From: a virus
Taxonomy: Duplodnaviria > Heunggongvirae > Uroviricota > Caudoviricetes
Virus record (IMG/VR): IMGVR_UViG_2737471852_000002
Span: 1-51,736 of that record
Reading direction: 5' to 3' (one strand)
Length of the DNA: 51,736 nt
Shown here one piece after another: positions 26,913 through 37,269 of the stretch. The notes beneath the pieces were generated by a model that was given only the letters and a program-made list of their open reading frames with translations, made no database searches and was not told the DNA's origin. Position 1 is the first letter of the stretch; every line of letters starts with the position of its first letter. A program made the position numbers and the translations under genes.

Positions 26913-28145
26913 TTATCCTTTGCGGTTAGACCAGAAGTCGGCGTTTTGTTTGTTCAGGGAAGCGATGCTGGTCATGCCCATATTTGGACGTTGTGCATCG
27001 CCCGTGGTGCTGCGGGTGTTTCGCCCTTTGGCAATCTCAGACACGGCGTTAAACGCCATATCGACCGATTGCTTGGGCAATTTGCGGATATCTGCATCAC
27101 CGACAACCTGGCGAACCAGTGTTTTGTCAGCGGCGGACAGCACATCACGTTTGAACGCGGTCGGTTTCACCTTACGGCTCAGATCGATACCCGGAACGAT
27201 AACTTCGGCACGATAAGCAGCGTCACCGGTAATCGTGGTTTCCTCTTCGTCGTCCTCACCGTCGCCGGTAGGGTCTTTGTTATCTTTGCCGTCAGGCTTA
27301 TCGTCGTTATCGCCCGTTGCAGTACCTTCCAGCTTAGCCAGCAGGGCTTTGAGCAAGGTTTTGATATCGTCCTCGCCGTCGCCGGTTGGCTCTCCGCCCA
27401 TTTCCGGCTTTTTGTCCGGAAATGGTTGTTGCGGTGAAAGATTAATGTTGAGGTTAACGCCGCTCGGCAGATCCCCTTCATCGCCCGTTACCGCCGCTGG
27501 CGCAGAGTCCAGCAGTTCGTTCATGGTGTCAGCATCACCCGTTTTGATGGCCGTGCGCATGCGGGTCCACCAGCTTTTCTTTTGATTTGCCATTGTGTCT
27601 CTGTCTCCAATTGCACAACGATTTCCGGCTCTGCCTTTAGGGACAAGAGCCACATGGTTTCCGGTAATATCGACCTGCTCGGCTTTTCCGGGTTCGGTCT
27701 GCTCGTACTCAGCGTCATAGCCGCACGACACTTCGCGCAGACCATCTTCGATCAGCTGAATGGCGCTTTCGTCTTTGACGATAAGGTCAGCCAGCATCAA
27801 ATCAGACTGATCACCAGTCCCGCGCCGAACGTTCTGAAGATGCCCGACCGCAAGCTCTTTCCAGTTCTCGGGGTTGACCAGCCGCACATTCCCGTTTTCA
27901 TCTTCAGGATGCAGGATCGTGATGCTCATCCCTTCGAATGAGGCGAGCGTGGCCGGATGGAATACCTGATCAGGAGAGCGCGTTACGACTATCTCGCCGA
28001 GCTTGTCGGGTTTGAGGTTTGGCAGATCGGCAGCGCCGTAAAGCTGCTTACCCGTTCGACCTATCGGCACGTCTTTGCACAGTAGCGAGCCGTCAGCCAG
28101 CTGATAACGGGTTTCCCCCAGCCGGGTATTGAAAAAATATTTCAT
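26913..28145 (-). CDS. prohead protease/scaffold-like protein
   Basis: 410 aa with acidic Gly/Asp/Glu-rich low-complexity middle (GDGEDDEEETTITGD). Confidence 0.5.
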   Translation of the reverse strand: MKYFFNTRLGETRYQLADGSLLCKDVPIGRTGKQLYGAADLPNLKPDKLGEIVVTRSPDQVFHPATLASFEGMSITILHPEDENGNVRLVNPENWKELAVGHLQNVRRGTGDQSDLMLADLIVKDESAIQLIEDGLREVSCGYDAEYEQTEPGKAEQVDITGNHVALVPKGRAGNRCAIGDRDTMANQKKSWWTRMRTAIKTGDADTMNELLDSAPAAVTGDEGDLPSGVNLNINLSPQQPFPDKKPEMGGEPTGDGEDDIKTLLKALLAKLEGTATGDNDDKPDGKDNKDPTGDGEDDEEETTITGDAAYRAEVIVPGIDLSRKVKPTAFKRDVLSAADKTLVRQVVGDADIRKLPKQSVDMAFNAVSEIAKGRNTRSTTGDAQRPNMGMTSIASLNKQNADFWSNRKG

Positions 28146-28159
28146 GGTTTACCTGCGAT

Positions 28160-28933
28160 TCAGGCGAGATAAGAATGAGGGTTGGGGAAGACGATTTCTT
28201 TGTAACAGCGGCAGTTCGGGAGCTCGCCAGCGTGACCGGTCATGCCGTCAAGCGTTGGAGGTCGGCCCCATTCGACAAACTTCCCTTCCATCTCTCGATG
28301 AGAATGCCGGACGTCGCCATCTTCGGCTGTACGCCAGATATAACCATTCGAGCCGATTGACAGCGCACGCGCCTGATCCAGTGCACCGGTTGCGCGCCCA
28401 AGCTCAGTCCGGGCGATAAGGTTCGCTCGTGAGCGTGACACGTCACCGGAAGCAGCTATCTCTTTCGCGAATGGCTCAGCGCGGCCACCAGTTACTACAG
28501 CCTCGATGGCCTTGTTCTGAATGTCATACACCCGATCGGCGGCCTCAAGAGGCAGAGATTTGATGTACTTAATTTGCTCGGCGACGATGGATTTCATCAC
28601 CTGGCCTACCGGGGCGCGGTCGACCATGTTGCGTAGTTCTGCGCTGATGTTCCGACTGTGCTGACGCCACTGCTTTTCATTCTGGCGCGCAATGTCGGCG
28701 GTGAAGCTCTCAGCAACCTTAGTCGCCCAGGGGGTGATGATTTCGCTGTAGCGCTCCAGCGCATCCATTATTTCGGTGACGCTATCGTTTGAACCATCGT
28801 AGCGACCATTTACGATATCCCCGACCGCCCGCGCTATCTGCCGTAGGCTCGTTCGATATCGGATCTCCGCCTGGCGGCTCTGGCGGTTTGTCGCCAAGTT
28901 CGCCGATGCCTGGCGGCGCTTCGTCTTCGGCAT
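28160..28933 (-). CDS. head morphogenesis protein (Mu F-like)
   Basis: 257 aa downstream of portal; ORF overlaps the portal 3' end in another frame, so its start is uncertain. Confidence 0.55.
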   Translation of the reverse strand: MPKTKRRQASANLATNRQSRQAEIRYRTSLRQIARAVGDIVNGRYDGSNDSVTEIMDALERYSEIITPWATKVAESFTADIARQNEKQWRQHSRNISAELRNMVDRAPVGQVMKSIVAEQIKYIKSLPLEAADRVYDIQNKAIEAVVTGGRAEPFAKEIAASGDVSRSRANLIARTELGRATGALDQARALSIGSNGYIWRTAEDGDVRHSHREMEGKFVEWGRPPTLDGMTGHAGELPNCRCYKEIVFPNPHSYLA

Positions 28934-30251
28934 TCTCGATATCCTCGTCGGTAATGGATGCCCCGATGCCGGTGACGTCAGAGTTTTCGCGCAGGTCGGT
29001 CATCGCCGCCTTACGCGTCATCAATCCGTCGCCCAGCGCGGTACTGATCGCGTTGGTGGTGTTTACGGCCACCGTTGATCGGTCAACGTCTGACATTTGC
29101 CATAGCGGGTTAAACTCAAACGTGAAATCGTCCGGCAGCGGCTTTCCGAGTTCCGAGCGGTGCATAATGTCCAGTATCCGGCGCATCGGCAGCCGTAAGC
29201 GGCGCTCCTGCAATGAGCTCACCCGGTCGTAATAGTTGGCGAGGTCTGCATCACCAGTAGAGAAGCCTTTCGGGGATTGACCGAACAGGCGTACCAGCGG
29301 GATACCAACGGCACCGCTGATCTGCTCAGCAAACTGCGAAAGAATGTCATCCAGACCACTAAAGCTGTACTGGTGGGTTTCGAACTTATCCCGCGAGTCC
29401 ATGAGCGTCATACCTTCATTGCTCTGGAACTGGCGGATCAGGTCGATGTTCTTCAGCAACGCTTCGAACGCCGGGCCTCCAAGCGCGATAAGCTCGCGCA
29501 ACTTCTCCACGCTATAGGTACGCAGATGCGCTTTATAGACCAGCTGCGCCGCGCCGACAGTAGCGCTATCGAACGCAGTAAGCCGATCCCAGATACGCTC
29601 TACAACCGACATTCCCCATTCGTTTTCGGTCATCTTCTGCTGGAATGGCAGCGTGACGCCATCAAAGCGGATCAGGCGGCTGTGATGGATGCGCCAGGCC
29701 GGAATGCCCGTTGCGGTGGTCACCACGTCGTAAAACTCAGGCTTGCCGAGGTCCGGCCCCATCTCTTTAATGCGGCGTGTCAGCACCGGGTTAATCATCC
29801 AGCGGTCGAGCGGGAGAATGCCCTTAAACTTGCCCTCGCCAATGGTTTCGAGTCGCAGCGGGGTCATTGGTGCTTGCCCCTCGATCATGATGAAGCCGAC
29901 CGCGCCGCCGTAGAGGCGCGACCATTTCAGCACGTCGTTCAGCGCATCCCAGATCTGCAACTCATCCAGTTGCGCTTCGAGGGTGCCACGGTCTTTGGCG
30001 TCAATCTCCGAAGTGATGCGAATGCCCTTTCGGGTCATATCGTCCGGGATAGCGTCGACCGCTTCACCGATAACCCACGAACCGCGATATGACCATTCCA
30101 CCAGCATGCGGTTGCGGCTGGTGAAGTTCGCCCGGTAGGTCGATGCTGAATGCTGGTTAGGCGTCTGCATCCCAACGCGGGCGACGAAGTTCTCGTAGCC
30201 GTCAGCGGTGGCCTGTGCCGTTCGCTGAGAGGATTGCTTGTTTCGTGCCAT
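28782..30251 (-). CDS. portal protein
   Basis: 489 aa, immediately downstream of terminase large subunit (4-nt overlap). Confidence 0.7.
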   Translation of the reverse strand: MARNKQSSQRTAQATADGYENFVARVGMQTPNQHSASTYRANFTSRNRMLVEWSYRGSWVIGEAVDAIPDDMTRKGIRITSEIDAKDRGTLEAQLDELQIWDALNDVLKWSRLYGGAVGFIMIEGQAPMTPLRLETIGEGKFKGILPLDRWMINPVLTRRIKEMGPDLGKPEFYDVVTTATGIPAWRIHHSRLIRFDGVTLPFQQKMTENEWGMSVVERIWDRLTAFDSATVGAAQLVYKAHLRTYSVEKLRELIALGGPAFEALLKNIDLIRQFQSNEGMTLMDSRDKFETHQYSFSGLDDILSQFAEQISGAVGIPLVRLFGQSPKGFSTGDADLANYYDRVSSLQERRLRLPMRRILDIMHRSELGKPLPDDFTFEFNPLWQMSDVDRSTVAVNTTNAISTALGDGLMTRKAAMTDLRENSDVTGIGASITDEDIENAEDEAPPGIGELGDKPPEPPGGDPISNEPTADSAGGRGYRKWSLRWFKR

Positions 30252-31873
30252 CAGGCCTGTCTCCCTAGCAGCTCCCAGATGTTCAGGGCTGAATTCATTG
30301 GCGCGTAGCTGATCATCACCGAGTCGGCGAGGTTCGGCGACTTGGTGCCATCAGGCTGTTTATCAACAACGATTTTCCCCACGCCATTAATGGAGTAGGT
30401 CGGCTGCGACAGCTCAATGATGAGTTTGTCTTTGCTCGCCATGGCGCTGCTGATTGAGATGATTTCGTCCGGGTTGTAGGCCATGCCCTCAACCACGGCG
30501 CGATAGGTGTTCTGGAAAAGCTTGCGTAGCCACCACCAGCTCTGGGCCTTGGCGTTGGCGAAGAAGTCCTTGTTCAGGCGTGCGGCCTGTCCGTTGTCCC
30601 CGCGCACCGCTTCATCGTCCGGATCAAATACCGCGCCGCTACCACGAAACGGTGTGGCGAGTATTGACGGTCGGCGCGCTGCGTAACGCAGTTCGTTGAT
30701 GGCGCGCGCATCGCCGCGAACGCCAGCACCCAGGCCGTCCTCGTCGAAGCGAAACTCTTCGAGGTTGTCCTGTTCGCAAAAGCCGAAGACCTTCTCAACA
30801 GACTGGTAAATGTCGCTGCCAACGCCGGACCATTCACGCACGTTCTCCAGAAGGAAGCCGTGACGGGTCGAAAAGGCATTTTTGTCCCGGCCTTCGTCGG
30901 CGACGTCCATCGCGCCCAGTCGCTTGCCCGTTGGCTGAATACCAAGTTTGATATGCGCGTCGACGGCAGCCTGTACCCAGTCGGACGGGATCAGGACGCC
31001 TTCCGCAGATGCGCTGTAGTTCAGGTCAAGTTCCTGCGCCACCACCACCGGATTGTCGATTTTCTCGCACTCCCTGCGATACCACTCTTCATCCTTGCGC
31101 GGGTCATCTCGCCAGTGGAACGTGAATACTGGTATCTTTCCGCCGTGGCGCTTCTGCGCGAACGGGTTCGCCATGCCATTAACCGAGCTCAGGTCAATAC
31201 GGCAACGGGTGGTTTGCGACAGCGCCGCATCAATCAACAGAGGACGCTGGAGGAATGCAGCTTCATCCACCAGGTAGAGCGTGGTACGGTCACCACGTCC
31301 GATATTGTCGCCAGCCTCGCCTTTGATAACCGCGCCAGTATCTGGAAACTCAACGCGCATATACGGCGCATGCTTCTTCTCGTCCCACGAACCACGAAAC
31401 TCGATGGGCAGTGTTTCCACGAACTTTCGCGCCTTCCAGAACAGCGCCTTCGGGTCACCGGTGCTGTCGACGTATTCCTCTTTACGGGAGCCGAAACCGA
31501 TAACCATTTCTTTGTTGAAGAGACAAAGCGAGCAGGCCAGCCCGATCGCGGTCCAACTGAGCCCCATTTCGCGGCTCTTTTCGGTGATGCCGTTCTCCAG
31601 TCGTTCGCGCCGCTCCATGATCCAGTGAATCCACTCTTCCTGTTTCGGGAACAGCAGAAAAGGGATGGTGACCGGCAGGCCATAATCGATGTTACGCGGG
31701 TCAGTAGTCATACCCCAGTCGATGATGAACTGTGCCGGGTTGGTGCGATAAAACTGCTTTAGCGCTGGTAGCATTTCAGGGTTCTGGCGAATGCGCTGTA
31801 AGCGCTCCATCCGCCATTCAAAAACCATCTGGTAATCAGGGTTTCTGAAATCGAATTCAAACGGAAGAGGCAT
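30251..31873 (-). CDS. terminase large subunit
   Basis: about 540 aa from ATG at 31873; ATPase plus nuclease architecture; followed by portal. Confidence 0.8.
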
Positions 31874-31945
31874 AAACAATTCCAGGCATTGAGTTTTTGC
31901 GTAACAAAGTTGATATTGTTTATGTACCAATTACAGGAGGTTTTA

Positions 31946-32157
31946 TGACACCAGCAGTTAGCGCTAAGTTGTTGGAATTAACCAACGACCTTAACAACGA
32001 AGTAAAATTGTCTGCAATTTATGCTCTCGGCGAGAGTGCTTCAGCAACGCCAGCTCATGTAAATCGCTTACTTGATTTATCTTCGGATCTAAATCACAAC
32101 GTCAAAGTCGCTGCAATTAAAGCTCTTGGCCGTATTACTCGACCAAAACAAGCCTAG
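31946..32157 (+). CDS. 70-aa protein made of two HEAT/PBS-lyase-like repeats (moron)
   Basis: CAGGAGG RBS 5 nt before ATG; LLELTNDLNNEVKLSAIYALGE and LLDLSSDLNHNVKVAAIKALGR repeats; AT-rich, opposite strand between the terminase genes. Confidence 0.5.
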
Positions 32158-32182
32158 AATCCATAGCCGCAACATGCGGCTA

Positions 32183-32656
32183 TCACCCCATCATCTTGCG
32201 GTAAATCTCTGCGGCCTGATCTGCGGTGAGGTTGGTCGTCTCGGTCTTGATCGGGCCGCCATCCTTGCCAGTGCTTTCAACCTTCAGCTTATTGGTGTAA
32301 GCGTCGCCAACCTCTTTCGCGGCCTGTTCAATCAGCTGCGCCGTCAGGGAGAAGTTTTTCATCCCCTCGGTTTTGGTTGCCATGCGGTCAAGCACGCGGA
32401 GGCGATAGGATTTGTTCGCGATCGGAATGTCGCTGGTTTCGGTCAGGAACCGTTCGCGCGTAGCGTGGAACATCTCGATCCACTTTTTGGCGAGCGTCTT
32501 ACCGCTGGCCTTCGTGGGGTCGTGAGATTCAGCCTGCTGGCGGGTGATCTTGATCCCGAATTCTTTTTGGACAGCCTCAACCACCTGCGTCGGCGTGTCA
32601 TAGCACGCAAGCGACTGAATGATGAAGGCTTTCACATCAGGTTTTAATGCAGCCAT
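32183..32656 (-). CDS. putative terminase small subunit
   Basis: 157 aa upstream of the terminase large subunit with an N-terminal HTH-like segment. Confidence 0.4.
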   Translation of the reverse strand: MAALKPDVKAFIIQSLACYDTPTQVVEAVQKEFGIKITRQQAESHDPTKASGKTLAKKWIEMFHATRERFLTETSDIPIANKSYRLRVLDRMATKTEGMKNFSLTAQLIEQAAKEVGDAYTNKLKVESTGKDGGPIKTETTNLTADQAAEIYRKMMG

Positions 32657-32686
32657 AAATCACCATTCGTCTTATTCAGTCCAGTT

Positions 32687-33307
32687 TTAAGCCAGTCGCA
32701 GCATGCACGTCCCGCAAGCTCTGGCAATATCGAGATGAGCAACCTCCGCTGGCTGATTCGCCGCATCAATCATTTCCTGCACATCACGGCTCGCACCGTA
32801 ACGGCGAACCACGCCCACAAACTCTTCCACGTCATGGCCGCGCAGCTTCAGCTTTGGCTGCCCTTCCTGCGTGAACTTCGGCGCGCCAAATTCATCTGTC
32901 GCCTGGCAGATGTGATAAAGCTCGTGCTCTATCAGCGCGCAGAACTCCAGATCGGAACATTGCGAACAGTAATCGGCGGCCAGCGTGATGATGAACTGCG
33001 GCACCCTGCCGAACCATTCATACATCTGTTGCTCCATCCGCGCTTTCTGCCAGCCTCCAGCCCGCATTGCCACTTCTTCCGCCTGTCCCAGCACGGAACG
33101 CCCTTTTTTCTCGAAAGCGTTCGACGCCCAGAGAAAGCACAGATCCGCTTCAAGCAAATGCTGGTGGTCAGGGTTGTAGAGGTCACCCTCATCACTCAGG
33201 ATGTGCTGATTCAGCCACTGGCCAACGTCACTGGCGGGCATTATGCTGATGTAAGGCTTCGGGTCAGATGGCATCGTAAAATGCGCTGGTGGGTGTGGTC
33301 TGTTCAT
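32687..33307 (-). CDS. HExxH zinc-metallopeptidase-like protein (SprT/Wss1-like?)
   Basis: 206 aa; IEHELYHI motif plus cysteine clusters (CSQCSDLEFC, ACGTCM). Confidence 0.45.
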   Translation of the reverse strand: MNRPHPPAHFTMPSDPKPYISIMPASDVGQWLNQHILSDEGDLYNPDHQHLLEADLCFLWASNAFEKKGRSVLGQAEEVAMRAGGWQKARMEQQMYEWFGRVPQFIITLAADYCSQCSDLEFCALIEHELYHICQATDEFGAPKFTQEGQPKLKLRGHDVEEFVGVVRRYGASRDVQEMIDAANQPAEVAHLDIARACGTCMLRLA

Positions 33308-33361
33308 GAATAATTCCAGTGCTCCATTATCGAAGCCCCTCAGTGAAGGGCTTCTGTAATG

Positions 33362-33547
33362 TCAGTCCCGGACGAACGTAACCTTTGTGGTTATCATTCG
33401 CCGCACAAGGCGCGTCGCTTCGCGTTGCATTTCATCAATTACTTTTGGTGTCAGCGGCTGACGCGCATATTTGCGCTCAATCTCTGCAAAAATCCCGTTC
33501 AGCGCCTCGCTGTCTGGTGGGATAACTTCAACGTTTAATCGTGCCAT
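33362..33547 (-). CDS. hypothetical small protein
   Basis: 61 aa from ATG at 33547 with AGGA RBS. Confidence 0.35.
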   Translation of the reverse strand: MARLNVEVIPPDSEALNGIFAEIERKYARQPLTPKVIDEMQREATRLVRRMITTKVTFVRD

Positions 33548-33806
33548 CGGTTTGTCCTGCCCTGTTGTTCTCGAAAGTCCTGATATCAGCCTTATCCCTG
33601 TTGCACTGCGCCAGCGCTGACAGCAACGTGACATTCAGGTTAAGACTTGCTCCCCACGTAAACGGGTCGGGTAAATCTGGCTGGGGTGTTTCAGCCGTCA
33701 GGCTGGCTGGTAACGGAACTACCGGAACCGGCACGAAGACCGTTCGCGTATTCGTGCAGCCGCTTAACTGCGCCAGCAGGCACAACACGAACAGCACAAT
33801 CATCAT
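33528..33806 (-). CDS. Rz1: o-spanin (Rz1-like lipoprotein), overlapping Rz in another frame
   Basis: signal peptide MMIVLFVLCLLAQLSGC with lipobox, then proline-rich VPVPVVPLP...PQPDLPDP; starts inside Rz and extends beyond it. Confidence 0.5.
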   Translation of the reverse strand: MMIVLFVLCLLAQLSGCTNTRTVFVPVPVVPLPASLTAETPQPDLPDPFTWGASLNLNVTLLSALAQCNRDKADIRTFENNRAGQTDGTIKR

Positions 33807-34083
33807 CCGCAACAGCAGCCTTGATATCGTTCTCGGTTCTCTGTGACTCCAGTGCGATCTGCTGCCTGGCATATTGATTTGTCTCCAGAATGATGTTCGT
33901 TATTGCTACGGTGCGCAGGACATTCGCGGTGATGGTCTCAAAGGAATCAGCGCGCTGTTCTGCATCGTCAGCGCGCCGCTGTTCCTCCAGAAACTTTCCA
34001 TGGTAATGATTCGCTGACCAGACAAGACCACCAGCAATACAAGCAATAAACGTTAAAATGAGCGCCCAATAACTCATCTTCAT
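33691..34083 (-). CDS. Rz: i-spanin (Rz-like)
   Basis: 130 aa, N-terminal TM helix then charged coiled coil; ATGA overlap with endolysin stop. Confidence 0.65.
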   Translation of the reverse strand: MKMSYWALILTFIACIAGGLVWSANHYHGKFLEEQRRADDAEQRADSFETITANVLRTVAITNIILETNQYARQQIALESQRTENDIKAAVADDDCAVRVVPAGAVKRLHEYANGLRAGSGSSVTSQPDG

Positions 34084-34694
34084 ACCAGCAGCGCCGCCCG
34101 CGCCTTGTTGTATCGGACCTTACGATCCTCAATACCGTTCAGACCGCCGTTAATGATGCGAGTAACACGATTAATATCGGCACCGTAGATCATGCAGCCT
34201 TTAGAGGTGTAGAACCATGCAGCTGAGCGCGCAGCCTGTAGTTCCTGTTCCAGTTGTTCAGGTGAAGTCACCAAATCTAACTTCAGAGCAGCCCCGCAGG
34301 TGCGATAATTGTCGAGGCCAGTGATTTGAATTAACCCTCTGCCGCGATATTTCCAGCCGTCGCCGGGCGCTTTGTTACCCAGGCGGTTGCTATACACCAG
34401 ATTGGCGATAGCATCCTGGCGGGCTGCGTGTTCGGTTGTTCTGCCAAGCGCATCAGCCTGCTGCTGTGTGATCCTCTTTCCGAAGGTCGCCACCAGCGCA
34501 GATGGTGTGTAGTTCAAATTTTCAACTACAGCGCTAAAGCCGCCTGACTCATGACCTACCTGAGCGATGAACATGGCCTGATCCGCGGGTGCTGTAATGC
34601 CGAATTCTTTCATCGCTGCATCTACTGGTTGAAACCAGCGCACAGCCAGTCCGGCGCTGATACCAGCCGCCTTTTGAAATAATTGTTGGTTCAT
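34080..34694 (-). CDS. endolysin, glycoside hydrolase family 19-like (chitinase-type lysozyme)
   Basis: 204 aa; FIAQVGHESGGF ... KYRGRGLIQITG motifs. Confidence 0.8.
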   Translation of the reverse strand: MNQQLFQKAAGISAGLAVRWFQPVDAAMKEFGITAPADQAMFIAQVGHESGGFSAVVENLNYTPSALVATFGKRITQQQADALGRTTEHAARQDAIANLVYSNRLGNKAPGDGWKYRGRGLIQITGLDNYRTCGAALKLDLVTSPEQLEQELQAARSAAWFYTSKGCMIYGADINRVTRIINGGLNGIEDRKVRYNKARAALLV

Positions 34695-34975
34695 TAGTGC
34701 CTCAGATGATCAACCAGGCGTGCAACGTTGCCTCTGACGGCCACCAGCACGGAAAGAAAAATAGTATTCGCCACGATAATGGGCCATGAGGAATGGGGAT
34801 AAATCCCACAGAGATAGGCCAACGGAACAGCACTGTATGTAACAGTAATCAGCCAGGCTAAACGTGAAACCCAAGGACGATGCCGCGAATCACCACGACG
34901 ATAAAACATCAGAGTAATAACAACACAAGCACATAACAGCGCGTTTATAGTTGCTGTCGGGTCATTTAGCTCCAC
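34694..34975 (-). CDS. membrane protein of the lysis cassette (antiholin or second holin)
   Basis: 93 aa with about 3 hydrophobic helices between holin and endolysin. Confidence 0.45.
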   Translation of the reverse strand: MELNDPTATINALLCACVVITLMFYRRGDSRHRPWVSRLAWLITVTYSAVPLAYLCGIYPHSSWPIIVANTIFLSVLVAVRGNVARLVDHLRH

Positions 34976-35348
34976 CTGAACCTCCCCGGCGCGTTATGAG
35001 CGCCACCAGCGACCCGATATCCTGATTATTCAGGAACGTCAGGATCTTAACGGCTAAAGCAGATACGATTACGGCACCAATGGCATCCAGAGGTTTATCA
35101 CTGTATCCGGTCAAGCTTGCCAGCTTGGAGCCAACCAACCCAGAGCAAAGGATCCCGGCAATATACGACACGATAAAATATGCCAGTCGGCGCGATGCGC
35201 TCAGATCCGCTGCTGTTGCTATGTAGAATACAGCCCCTGCAAATGCGCCAAATACAACGCCGTAATCAGTTCCGGTCAGCAGTCCATAAACACTGGCACC
35301 CGTCAGGGCACCACCAGCCAGCCCAGTACCGGAAATTGGATCGGACAT
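34962..35348 (-). CDS. holin
   Basis: 128 aa with Gly/Ala-rich TM helices and charged C-terminus; first gene of the lysis cassette. Confidence 0.6.
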   Translation of the reverse strand: MSDPISGTGLAGGALTGASVYGLLTGTDYGVVFGAFAGAVFYIATAADLSASRRLAYFIVSYIAGILCSGLVGSKLASLTGYSDKPLDAIGAVIVSALAVKILTFLNNQDIGSLVALITRRGGSGGAK

Positions 35349-35582: not shown

Positions 35583-35735
35583 ATGAGTGAATCAAACAAA
35601 CCATCTGGAGAAAATAAGCCTCAACCCGCACCACAGCCTAAACCGGCTCCACAGCCAGCCGAAAGAAATCTGAGGACAGGTTATACCTTTGTTGCCGATT
35701 CTGCTGAAAACATCAGAAAAAAAGGTAAGTAAGTA
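35583..35735 (+). CDS. possible 49-aa proline-rich small protein
   Basis: GGAG RBS; MSESNKPSGENKPQPAPQPKPAPQPAERNL...; its 3' end converges on the 35713-36282 gene; may be spurious. Confidence 0.2.
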
Positions 35736-36282
35736 CTGAGATTACAAGTGCACAAACAGGGGTGAGGATTGTAGCGATCCTTACCCTTTCTAGTTCTCGG
35801 CCTATTCTGGCATTCTCTTTTTTACTCATTTCAGCCATTCTGGTTAAATCCGCAAGCCGGTAGCGCCGCAAGACGTTCAATGTTGAACGCTTTCCTGAAA
35901 ATCCTTTCGACTCAAAACCAGTGTAATCATCTTCAGTAAACCCTTTATAGCCATCATGGTAAAGCGCATAGGGTGTCGATGACACGAGAGCTCGTGACCT
36001 TACAACGAGGACGCAGCGAACAAGATAAGCCGCACACATTGCCCAGTAGACTAAAAAAACAGACATTCCAGCGGTGAGGTAATCAAAACCTGTACGTTGC
36101 GTTAATAACAAAAATGACGAGCCCACGCCAGCAATGAGTATACTCAATAACTTCTGGCCATTTTCTTTGTTTAGTGCGTTGGACTGGTGAATTTCGCGTA
36201 TACAATCCTCGCCCTGCTTCTCCAGAAAAGCAACGAGTTCGTCGTCCGCATCCAAAAAGTAATCATCGGGTAGATTATTCAT
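35713..36282 (-). CDS. membrane protein of unknown function at the Q-to-lysis moron position
   Basis: 189 aa, two central hydrophobic helices plus a C-terminal TM (ILTPVCALVISVLTYLFF); lies between the tR'-like terminator and the holin. Confidence 0.5.
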   Translation of the reverse strand: MNNLPDDYFLDADDELVAFLEKQGEDCIREIHQSNALNKENGQKLLSILIAGVGSSFLLLTQRTGFDYLTAGMSVFLVYWAMCAAYLVRCVLVVRSRALVSSTPYALYHDGYKGFTEDDYTGFESKGFSGKRSTLNVLRRYRLADLTRMAEMSKKENARIGRELERVRIATILTPVCALVISVLTYLFF

Positions 36283-36370: not shown

Positions 36371-36398
36371 CGGTGTTATCCGCAGGGCTTGAAACGAA
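36371..36398 (-). terminator. tR'-like intrinsic terminator about 50 nt downstream of the predicted late promoter
   Basis: on the minus strand ccctgcgg-ataaca-ccgtgggg followed by UUUUUU. Confidence 0.55.
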
Positions 36399-36486: not shown

Positions 36487-37269
36487 TTACCGCGTTATCT
36501 GCTTAAGCTGTTTTTCGGCCCAGGACTCTTCGATATCAAATTTCGTGATCAGCAGGTCGTAGAATGGCTTAACAGACTTTTTCCAGGTGTCCAGGCTAAT
36601 GGCGTCAGTAATCTGGCATACAGCAGCATAGGCTTCAGTCGACGGAAGTCGTTCATACCCACGCCCTCCGCAGCGCTTACAGTCAGCCAGAACAGGAACG
36701 CCCTGTTTCTCAGTAAGAGCCTGGTTCACTGCCTTGCCGCGCCCATGGCAATCACTGCAAGAAGCACTAACCACACCAGAGCCATTACACTTTTTGCATA
36801 GCACTTTGATGGATTCTTTGACCTTCACCATCCCGGACACGGTCATTTTCCCTTCTGGCTTACGGAATTTATTGGTAAACACGTCAGCCTCAATGAAGCC
36901 CTGACCGTCACAACAATCGCACTGCTTCACGCTGGCAGCGCTGCGGGAATAGTCCTCAAAAGCGAAGGTGGCCAACTGGTGCATCACCTGAGGTTTAACC
37001 GCGGCACCGAGCTTACGCAGTGCGGCAACCTTGTCGCATTTTGTCATCGCGTACTCAGCCAGCAGACCGATCGCCCGATCCCGGTCGTTATTGCTTATGC
37101 CCATCTTGCCGAGGAAGGCGCTGTAACCCATTGCGGCGCGTTCCTGCGTCATGCCCATGGCAGCCATTATGTCGGTACCGGTCAGTGAATCGGAGGCGGT
37201 AGCGCGCGGAGAATCGCTAATCAGTGTGGATTTAGCGAAGTGGTATTTCACTGTGTTTTCAAGGTTCAT
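36487..37269 (-). CDS. late-gene antiterminator Q-like protein
   Basis: 260 aa with Cys-rich zinc-binding region (CDCCDGQGF...CKKCNGSG...CSDCHGRG...CKRCGGRG); position between nin/rusA region and lysis genes. Confidence 0.75.
   Translation of the reverse strand: MNLENTVKYHFAKSTLISDSPRATASDSLTGTDIMAAMGMTQERAAMGYSAFLGKMGISNNDRDRAIGLLAEYAMTKCDKVAALRKLGAAVKPQVMHQLATFAFEDYSRSAASVKQCDCCDGQGFIEADVFTNKFRKPEGKMTVSGMVKVKESIKVLCKKCNGSGVVSASCSDCHGRGKAVNQALTEKQGVPVLADCKRCGGRGYERLPSTEAYAAVCQITDAISLDTWKKSVKPFYDLLITKFDIEESWAEKQLKQITR

Follow-up and report, generated by a model that had tools for sequence, protein, structure and literature searches.

A PF18894 putative metallopeptidase linked to a DUF2280-type small terminase gene in a myovirus-type prophage

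Results

The locus and its product

In this study, we describe MP, our name for a 206-residue protein of the PF18894 family ("putative phage metallopeptidase"), which is encoded in the caudoviricete record IMGVR_UViG_2737471852_000002, analyzed over its full 51,736 nucleotides (hereafter, the window). Its gene is an ATG-started open reading frame (ORF) in a myovirus-type prophage, with the lysis genes on one side and the terminase genes on the other, and the listed neighbors are all located, as it is, on the minus strand (Table 1). The gene that follows encodes a DUF2280 protein, the presumed small terminase subunit (TerS), and this arrangement is close to constant among relatives: MP stands directly upstream of a small-terminase gene in about 167 of 171 informative loci, and in 163 of them that gene is of the DUF2280 type. 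The explanation that we favor as a whole, tentatively and at a little below even confidence, is that MP is a cytoplasmic PF18894 zinc metallopeptidase that is produced late, is coupled to TerS and acts at the initiation of DNA packaging. An earlier note, made from the sequence alone, had placed here an ORF carrying IEHELYHI (residues 126–133), a HExxH motif, between the lysis cassette and the packaging genes, in a slot that it regarded as neither a standard structural nor a lysis one; its coordinates and motif are correct, the neighboring genes confirm the position, and the neighborhood supports its view of the slot.

The N-terminal residues R3, P4, P6, and P7 are kept in 87–91% of relatives, indicating that the first ATG is the true start of MP. 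The overlapping plus-strand ORF at 32735..33313 (192 residues) is a shadow ORF.

Family membership and conserved residues

MP is a clear, full-length member of PF18894, as judged from a Pfam match of 147.7 bits (cutoff 23.7) that aligns residues 30–184 with positions 2–134 of the 134-position profile and is the only significant Pfam domain in the protein. An NCBIfam scan of MP gave no match. By chance, about 0.5% of proteins of this size should contain a HExxH, an estimate from amino-acid frequencies, and the motif alone is weak evidence for that reason; it is regarded here as real because of the PF18894 score, its near-invariance in 130 sequences, and a high-confidence model with a zincin fold. 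In that set, which consists of the window protein and 129 representatives with a median identity to it of 40%, H128 and E129 are conserved in all 130 sequences and H132 in 129 (99%), showing that the catalytic motif is under strict constraint. The earlier likening to HExxH metalloproteases is supported in that MP is a zincin-type protein with a strictly conserved catalytic glutamate, and the incidental, non-conserved HExxH that it had named as the alternative is not what the family displays.

Other positions are nearly as constant. The residues H158 (98%), D159 (92%), and E161 (95%) follow H132 at a distance of 26–29 residues, and the catalytic zinc would be bound by H128, H132, and one of these three. 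H48 (98%), H50 (95%), C198 (97%), and C201 (88%) may provide either a second, structural zinc site or a cysteine-switch tail. G171 is present in every sequence, and W31, W60, and W86 are conserved in 91–95%. The position of C123 is a cysteine in 79% of sequences and position 133 in 70%, with the window protein having I133 followed by C134. MP contains seven cysteines, with two CxxC motifs, C114-S-Q-C117 and C198-G-T-C201; of the CxxC-type clusters that the earlier note had remarked, only the C-terminal CGxC is conserved across the aligned family. C114 and C117 are cysteines in only about 20% of representatives and elsewhere A, V, L, M, or W, for which reason they look like buried hydrophobic positions and not metal ligands. 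A four-cysteine site made of C114, C117, C123, and C134 with C198 and C201 was considered as a family feature and rejected, as the positions are mostly hydrophobic in relatives and their co-occurrence is only mildly enriched.

The identity of MP is already known at the family level, and since protein and family are catalogued, the annotation itself is ordinary and its novelty low. Homologues form 3501 clusters at 90% identity in a large protein collection, those with a name being called "putative metallopeptidase," and a profile search of the 50% representatives retrieved 1300 at E up to 0.001, 225 of these below 1e-30. MP is encoded by 144 phage records, including phages of Acinetobacter, Pseudomonas (JBD44, phiPSA1), Klebsiella, Vibrio, and Burkholderia, Pectobacterium phage ZF40, and Cronobacter phage ENT47670; the homologue in Citrobacter phage Omnitron is 98% identical. 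Annotated copies that are nearly identical also exist in prophages of E. coli, Enterobacter, and Citrobacter, and the MP-DUF2280 pair occurs in 58 of 5426 complete E. coli genomes (about 1%; best match 98.8% DNA identity), where PGAP/RefSeq names it "putative metallopeptidase" followed by "DUF2280 domain-containing protein."

Predicted fold and likeness to known metalloproteases

The structure prediction suggested in the earlier note returned a confident zincin fold. With 83 diverse sequences, the AlphaFold model reached a predicted local distance difference test score (pLDDT) of 93.8 and a predicted template modeling score of 0.86; the single-sequence model (pLDDT 37) was unusable. As modeled, MP is a zincin core, a mixed beta-sheet and an active-site helix bearing the HExxH, with family-specific N- and C-terminal additions, the CGxC region being located in a lower-confidence C-terminal tail (block pLDDT 83 and 57). 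A Foldseek search of the model against the PDB found nothing significant, and the BFVD viral structure library yielded only other PF18894 members and noise. In a structural comparison that aligned about 91 of the 206 residues, the best matches were proteases; the values obtained were 7.8 for projannalysin, 7.0 for selecase, 6.8 for the Spartan SprT domain, 6.4 for proabylysin, 6.2 for BepA, 5.8 for YbeY, 5.3 for Wss1, and 4.7 for HtpX. The modeled core is therefore structurally nearest to the minigluzincin, SprT-Spartan, and Wss1 group.

Within that group, Wss1 and Spartan are most similar to the minigluzincins, and Wss1 is latent, with a cysteine switch that is relieved on DNA binding (PMC4559962). 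MP shares 12–15% identity over about 90 aligned residues with the minigluzincins projannalysin (4jix), proabylysin (4jiu), and selecase (4qhf), and sequence and profile searches with MP gave no match to these PDB entries. In contrast to these archaeal, minimal domains of about 100 residues, which have no phage or terminase context, MP is about twice as large, its roughly 55 extra N-terminal and 45 extra C-terminal residues bearing the HxH and the CGxC. The likeness to SprT/Spartan and Wss1 (WLM) lies in the modeled protease core, and SprT-like (PF10263) Pfam matches were found below threshold in 5 of 83 family members (best E=0.012); the MP of the window has no SprT-like or WLM Pfam match even at E up to 1. 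The third ligand of SprT and Wss1 lies close behind the HExxH, whereas the candidate in MP lies much further on, and the short form of MP has no evident DNA-binding surface, unlike the DNA-dependent SprT/Spartan and Wss1 proteases. The SprT-like genes of phages Adephagia and Loki, known from the literature, belong to early or replication regions and are unrelated to the slot of MP.

The earlier note had invoked either SprT/Wss1-type or ImmA-type enzymes, and only the first half of that comparison holds: none of the 83 members has a Peptidase_M78 (ImmA/IrrE) match at E up to 1, and no homology to ImmA/IrrE is detectable. An ImmA/IrrE-type anti-repressor protease that controls prophage induction would also have a HExxH, and the logic of the gene pair is alike, a zincin gene being adjacent to, and co-expressed with, the gene of a helix-turn-helix (HTH) DNA-binding protein that the zincin could cleave, as with ImmA and ImmR or DdrO. 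However, the partner of MP is a late-operon terminase subunit and not an immunity-region repressor, and MP is more than 3 kb downstream of the antiterminator gene Q, the immunity region being elsewhere in the window. We regard this role for MP as hardly credible.

N-terminal extensions and the transposase label

About 21% of the representatives (32 of 150; for example P0249, P0253, P0257, P0281, P0297, and P0357) carry an N-terminal extension of 50–110 residues that the window protein does not have. Most of these extensions are HTH-like, with two different sequence patterns, and Pfam HTH matches (HTH_Tnp_1, HTH_28, MerR) are weak and were obtained for 3 of the 10 long variants scanned. Profile-profile comparison of the HTH extension with DUF2280 revealed no relationship. 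The presence of such extensions suggests that the enzyme may work on or near DNA, a view with which the pairing of an acidic MP with a basic DUF2280 protein would agree.

MP matches phrog_513, labeled "transposase," at E=2.7e-97, and the homologues in ZF40, ENT47670, and phiPSA1 are called putative transposases in GenBank. Against these labels stand the zincin fold, the confinement of the HTH_Tnp_1-like signal to the extensions of the long variants, and the fact that no transposase catalytic domain of the DDE, HUH, serine, or tyrosine type was found in any scanned member. A transposase identity is refuted at the level of domain content and can be given practically no credence; the weak HTH_Tnp_1 matches are probably the origin of the PHROG 513 label, which is wrong, as it is in the several GenBank records that carry it, and should not be propagated.

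Linkage to the small terminase gene

Loci were surveyed from IMG/VR, GenBank phages, and metagenome contigs, in a first sample of 92 loci and a second, more diverse sample of 81; two locus searches, each with one distant sequence as query, found 0 and 1 locus, respectively. DUF2280 follows MP directly in 86 of the 92 loci, with a gap of 30–32 nucleotides in 75, and in 71 of the 81, with a gap of 29–33 nucleotides in 66. In three loci (L089, L142, and L145) MP is followed by a different small-terminase-like protein and then by the large terminase subunit (TerL). Counted by genus, the phage records that encode MP and those that encode DUF2280 are nearly equal in number (62/62, 44/44, 8/9, 8/8, and 7/7; 144 MP and 147 DUF2280 records with Salinibacter excluded). 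Moreover, DUF2280 is directly upstream of the large terminase gene in 84 of 86 loci, and its homologue in Magia is annotated as terminase small subunit. The near-constant slot upstream of the small terminase gene suggests a role of MP in DNA packaging.

The gene on the other side varies, with lysis genes here, NinG/RusA-type genes in JBD44 and Burkholderia, and HNH genes in Acinetobacter. HNH genes overlap or abut MP in several arrangements: HNH-MP-DUF2280 in Acinetobacter (L002, an Ab105-2phi derivative), MP followed by HNH at the genome end in Burkholderia phage vB_PL1 (L003), and MP followed by an HNH_3/NUMOD4 homing endonuclease on the metagenomic contig L091. HNH accessory proteins of the HK97 gp74 type occupy the same slot, immediately upstream of the small terminase gene, in many phages, and their fold and chemistry differ from those of MP. 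In HK97-like phages, their genes are said to have been described by Kala et al. in PNAS in 2014 as holding the position that MP holds here.

It could be argued from this shared position, and from the HNH genes that abut MP in Acinetobacter and Burkholderia phages, that MP has a zincin fold but hydrolyzes something other than peptide bonds, as a nuclease or a hydrolase of nucleotides would, or that it is a zinc protein with no catalytic activity, and that it assists the terminase in recognizing or cutting DNA as HNH proteins do with cos terminases. However, HNH and MP co-occur in those phages instead of replacing each other, showing that MP is not simply a replacement for HNH. The glutamate of the HExxH, a marker of peptidase-type catalysis, is invariant, whereas the YbeY motif HxxxHxxxxxH has no such residue, and the best structural matches of the model are proteases. 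MP is, in addition, an acidic protein (isoelectric point 5.2, net charge about −11; family median 5.5), in contrast to the basic DUF2280 protein. A function of this kind is improbable in our judgment.

Exchange of TerL families behind the cassette

The MP-DUF2280 cassette is joined to at least eight mutually unrelated TerL families. Identity in the C-terminal third of DUF2280 depends on the TerL family (76% vs. 47%, r=0.72), a dependence not seen for MP (82% vs. 75%) or for the N-domain of DUF2280 (77% vs. 67%). This supports the view that DUF2280 is a small terminase with a C-terminal TerL-binding part. Since the C-terminal part covaries with TerL and the N-domain stays with MP, the mosaic recombination joint lies inside terS, and the conserved unit is thus MP plus the DNA-recognition domain of TerS. 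On these comparisons, MP is tied more tightly to the DNA-recognition half of TerS than TerS is to its own large subunit.

This pattern bears on the possibility that MP is a prohead maturation protease or another virion-assembly protease, which its nature as a late-expressed putative protease next to morphogenesis genes would invite. A capsid-matched protease would not be expected to travel with TerS across TerL families and different portals. In addition, the place expected for such a protease, behind the portal and Mu-F-like genes, is already filled by a DUF2213 protein, a family that we presume to act as protease or scaffold; MP has no Pfam match to the S49/ClpP, HK97 (S78), or U9/U35 families, and its gene lies upstream of terS and not between portal and capsid. 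We know of no prohead protease that is a zincin of the MP type, and consider this reading very improbable.

Between the terS stop and the terL start of the window lies an insertion of about 303 nucleotides (about 31879–32181), which the nearest relatives, L006 and L009, lack, their terL coming straight after terS. It contains, on the plus strand, an ORF (31897..32157) that matches HEAT_2 repeats (E=1.7e-8) and has a hairpin after it; this ORF probably starts at an internal ATG, served by the ribosome-binding site AGGAGG, and would then encode 70 residues. The insertion looks like a moron in the middle of the terminase operon. The true start of the large terminase is probably the ATG near 31873.

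Late transcription and an RNA element over the terS start

The antiterminator gene Q (36487–37269, minus strand) is followed by strong terminators at 36390–36363 and 35490–35471, and no terminator or promoter was found between the lysis genes, MP, and terS. MP is thus transcribed late, from a Q-antiterminated operon.

The spacer between MP and terS and the beginning of terS fold into two helices. An outer helix pairs positions 32684–32679, just past the MP stop codon, with 32572–32567, at terS codons about 28–30; an inner helix pairs 32668–32660, which contains the Shine-Dalgarno sequence GGTGA, with 32625–32617, at terS codons 11–13. The minimum free energy of the window fold is −38.6 kcal/mol. 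RNAalifold recovered both helices from 15 relatives of one clade, with 6 of 23 pairs compensatory, and found no consensus in a mixed alignment of all spacer types, since the register of pairing differs between clades. In a set of 28 loci, the outer helix was 86% paired with the first copy of a repeat in the spacer and 79% with the second, and the Shine-Dalgarno helix 85%, with compensatory changes among the loci; none of 500 shuffles reached the covariation score, and slid controls were at most 51% paired. G-U pairs are present and argue for constraint at the RNA level on the sense strand.

The repeat is a direct repeat of 5–8 nucleotides with a period of exactly 10, just 5′ of the terS ribosome-binding site (32657–32686, minus strand, in the window, and in L002, L019, L020, L023, L029, L041, L059, L080, and L090), with an inverted copy about 116 nucleotides past the MP stop codon, inside terS. 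The unit varies by locus (TTGGAC, CAGGAC, TATGAC, TTATAC, CTTTAAC, and, in Acinetobacter, CCTTGACG), and the spacer copies and the downstream complement change together between loci. In the window it is degenerate, CTGGAC and TAAGAC, with the complement GTCCAA forming the distal strand of the outer helix. A hairpin uses only one 5′ strand, which leaves the second copy of the repeat unaccounted for; the doubling could reflect a switch between alternative pairings or binding sites for TerS or pac, and the repeat may have a role at the DNA level. Locus L088 has a 118-nucleotide MP-terS spacer with a 12-nucleotide tandem direct repeat (CCGGCGCTTAGA, twice).

Neighboring genes and other features

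The features of the locus are given in Table 1. Beyond the portal, the minus strand continues with genes for a Mu-F-like protein, the DUF2213 protein, a cement protein, a PF09950 major capsid protein, and a DUF3383 sheath protein. The small ORF upstream of MP overlaps the end of Rz1 and is found in only some close relatives (L005 and L007–L009); phrog_12811, of unknown function, matches only its last 61 residues, and an internal ATG is for this reason probably its true start. Between its stop and the ribosome-binding site of MP lies a GC-rich hairpin (GAAGCCC...GGGCTTC; 33332–33354, minus strand) with no U-tract, which was not scored as a terminator. For a 189-residue ORF between Q and the holins (35713–36282, minus strand), which has one of the two strong late-operon terminators on either side, Pfam gave no match; this ORF could be a moron. 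The Q antiterminator (PF03589) shows a sub-threshold match to a DnaJ-type CxxCxGxG zinc finger that overlaps the start of the Antiterm match (residues 158–205).

Table 1. Coordinates and strands of MP, its candidate sites, the RNA element, and neighboring genes in the window
Feature	Coordinates	Strand	Evidence or remark
MP gene	32687..33307	minus	ORF; Pfam PF18894 E=2.6e-43; 3501 homologue clusters; AlphaFold pLDDT 93.8, predicted zincin core
HExxH, predicted catalytic motif, H128-E129-L-Y-H132	32912..32926	minus	H128 and E129 in 130/130, H132 in 129/130 representatives
H158-D159-V-E161 in GHDVEEF motif	32825..32836	minus	candidate third zinc ligand and active-site residues
H48-x-H50 (NPDHxHL)	33158..33166	minus	candidate ligands of a second metal site
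C198-G-T-C201, C-terminal	32705..32716	minus	candidate structural zinc site (with H48/H50) or cysteine-switch tail
MP-terS spacer (30 nt) and first ~90 nt of terS, mRNA structure	32567..32686	minus	fold and covariation
DUF2280 protein, 157 residues, isoelectric point 9.1, presumed small terminase subunit	32183..32656	minus	PF10045 E=9e-50
Large terminase subunit	30251..31930	minus	ORF; 99% identical to TerL after DUF2280 in L004-L009; Phage_portal_3 portal next
Phage_portal_3 portal	28782-30251	minus	downstream of large terminase
DUF2213 protein	26913-28145	minus	slot after portal and Mu-F-like genes
Small ORF, phrog_12811 match	33362-33634	minus	upstream of MP
Rz1/LysC	33528-33872	minus	upstream of MP
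Rz	33691-34083	minus	upstream of MP
GH19-type endolysin	34080-34694	minus	upstream of MP
Two holins	34694-35348	minus	upstream of MP

Discussion

In the explanation that we favor, MP would be a cytoplasmic zinc metallopeptidase with its predicted active site intact, formed by H128, E129, H132, and a third ligand from H158-D159-x-E161, and its gene would be the upstream half of a two-gene cassette of which the DUF2280-type small terminase is the other. An mRNA structure, held shut by the nucleotides that come right after the MP stop codon, would occlude the ribosome-binding site of terS; ribosomes that reach the end of MP would melt it, so that synthesis of TerS would be tied to that of MP. The covarying structure that hides the ribosome-binding site suggests such a translational coupling of terS to MP. 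At packaging initiation, MP would then act as a protease on a DNA-bound protein, most likely TerS itself, by the logic with which ImmA acts on a neighboring HTH protein, or else proteins on the DNA to be packaged, by the logic of SprT and Wss1.

Several observations weigh against this explanation. The second sample contains six further loci in which a small gene is inserted between MP and DUF2280. The only contexts without a small terminase are those of distant members that lie outside a packaging context, L086 and L087 next to DUF5131, and L091 and L092 beside an HNH homing endonuclease and nucleotide-metabolism genes. In Salinibacter phages with DUF2280 and TerL, no MP was found within 4 kb of DUF2280 (181 DUF2280 records): in Salinibacter phage 2_3 (L093, OR896246.1) and 180 similar Salinibacter ruber phage records, a DUF2280 protein (33% identical) is encoded immediately ahead of a large ORF that occupies the place of TerL. 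This terminase type can thus exist without MP, and, taken with the inserted genes, the Salinibacter phages indicate that neither MP nor the coupling is indispensable to it. The tight linkage could also result from a cis-acting pac site, located within MP or next to it, that is obliged to travel with the DNA-binding domain of TerS. With regard to the RNA element, the outer helix of the window comprises only 5 bp and the z-score of its fold is modest (−1.97). Finally, a literature search found no biochemical or genetic study of any PF18894 member, the family being mentioned in one paper, and there only as an annotation.

The same inserted morons, distant groups, and MP-less Salinibacter phages would be accounted for if MP were indeed a protease, but one with a target unconnected to packaging, such as a host defence, stress, or nucleoid protein, its linkage to terS being due to shared transcription, to the overlapping RNA element, or to a pac site. 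The slot between lysis and terminase genes is, moreover, a known place for accessory genes. Yet accessory genes are normally patchy, and MP holds its slot upstream of the small terminase gene almost throughout the informative loci, in Entero-, Pseudomonas, Acinetobacter, Vibrio, and Burkholderia phages, and remains joined to the N-domain of TerS when one TerL family is exchanged for another. There is also no meaningful PADLOC match for MP, nor does the gene have a promoter or terminator of its own. We think an unrelated target unlikely, although it deserves real weight.

Returning to a role of MP at packaging initiation, its most specific form is that MP is a dedicated proteolytic component of the packaging-initiation complex, made in step with TerS by means of the structured mRNA. 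It might cleave TerS, which would free the terminase from pac and license translocation, or the terminase might recruit it, as a SprT/Wss1-like protease, to clear the concatemer, before packaging, of proteins attached to it covalently or tightly. We offer this form as speculation, and in its full detail it is on balance rather unlikely to be right. Were it so, the clearing of the concatemer would be especially useful for SOS-induced prophages.

The covarying mRNA structure over the terS ribosome-binding site is a candidate regulatory element in its own right; we found no description in the searchable literature of this element, of the terminase linkage, or of the HTH-fused variants of PF18894. 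The family is widespread, with at least 3500 clusters at 90% identity and members in many temperate phages of Pseudomonas, Acinetobacter, Klebsiella, Vibrio, and Burkholderia. The accepted mechanism of terminases includes, to our knowledge, no protease. A functional linkage would point to an unrecognized step in packaging initiation, and either of the two proteolytic roles, if true, would mean that the textbook account of the terminase lacks a proteolytic step for a large group of temperate phages of Proteobacteria.

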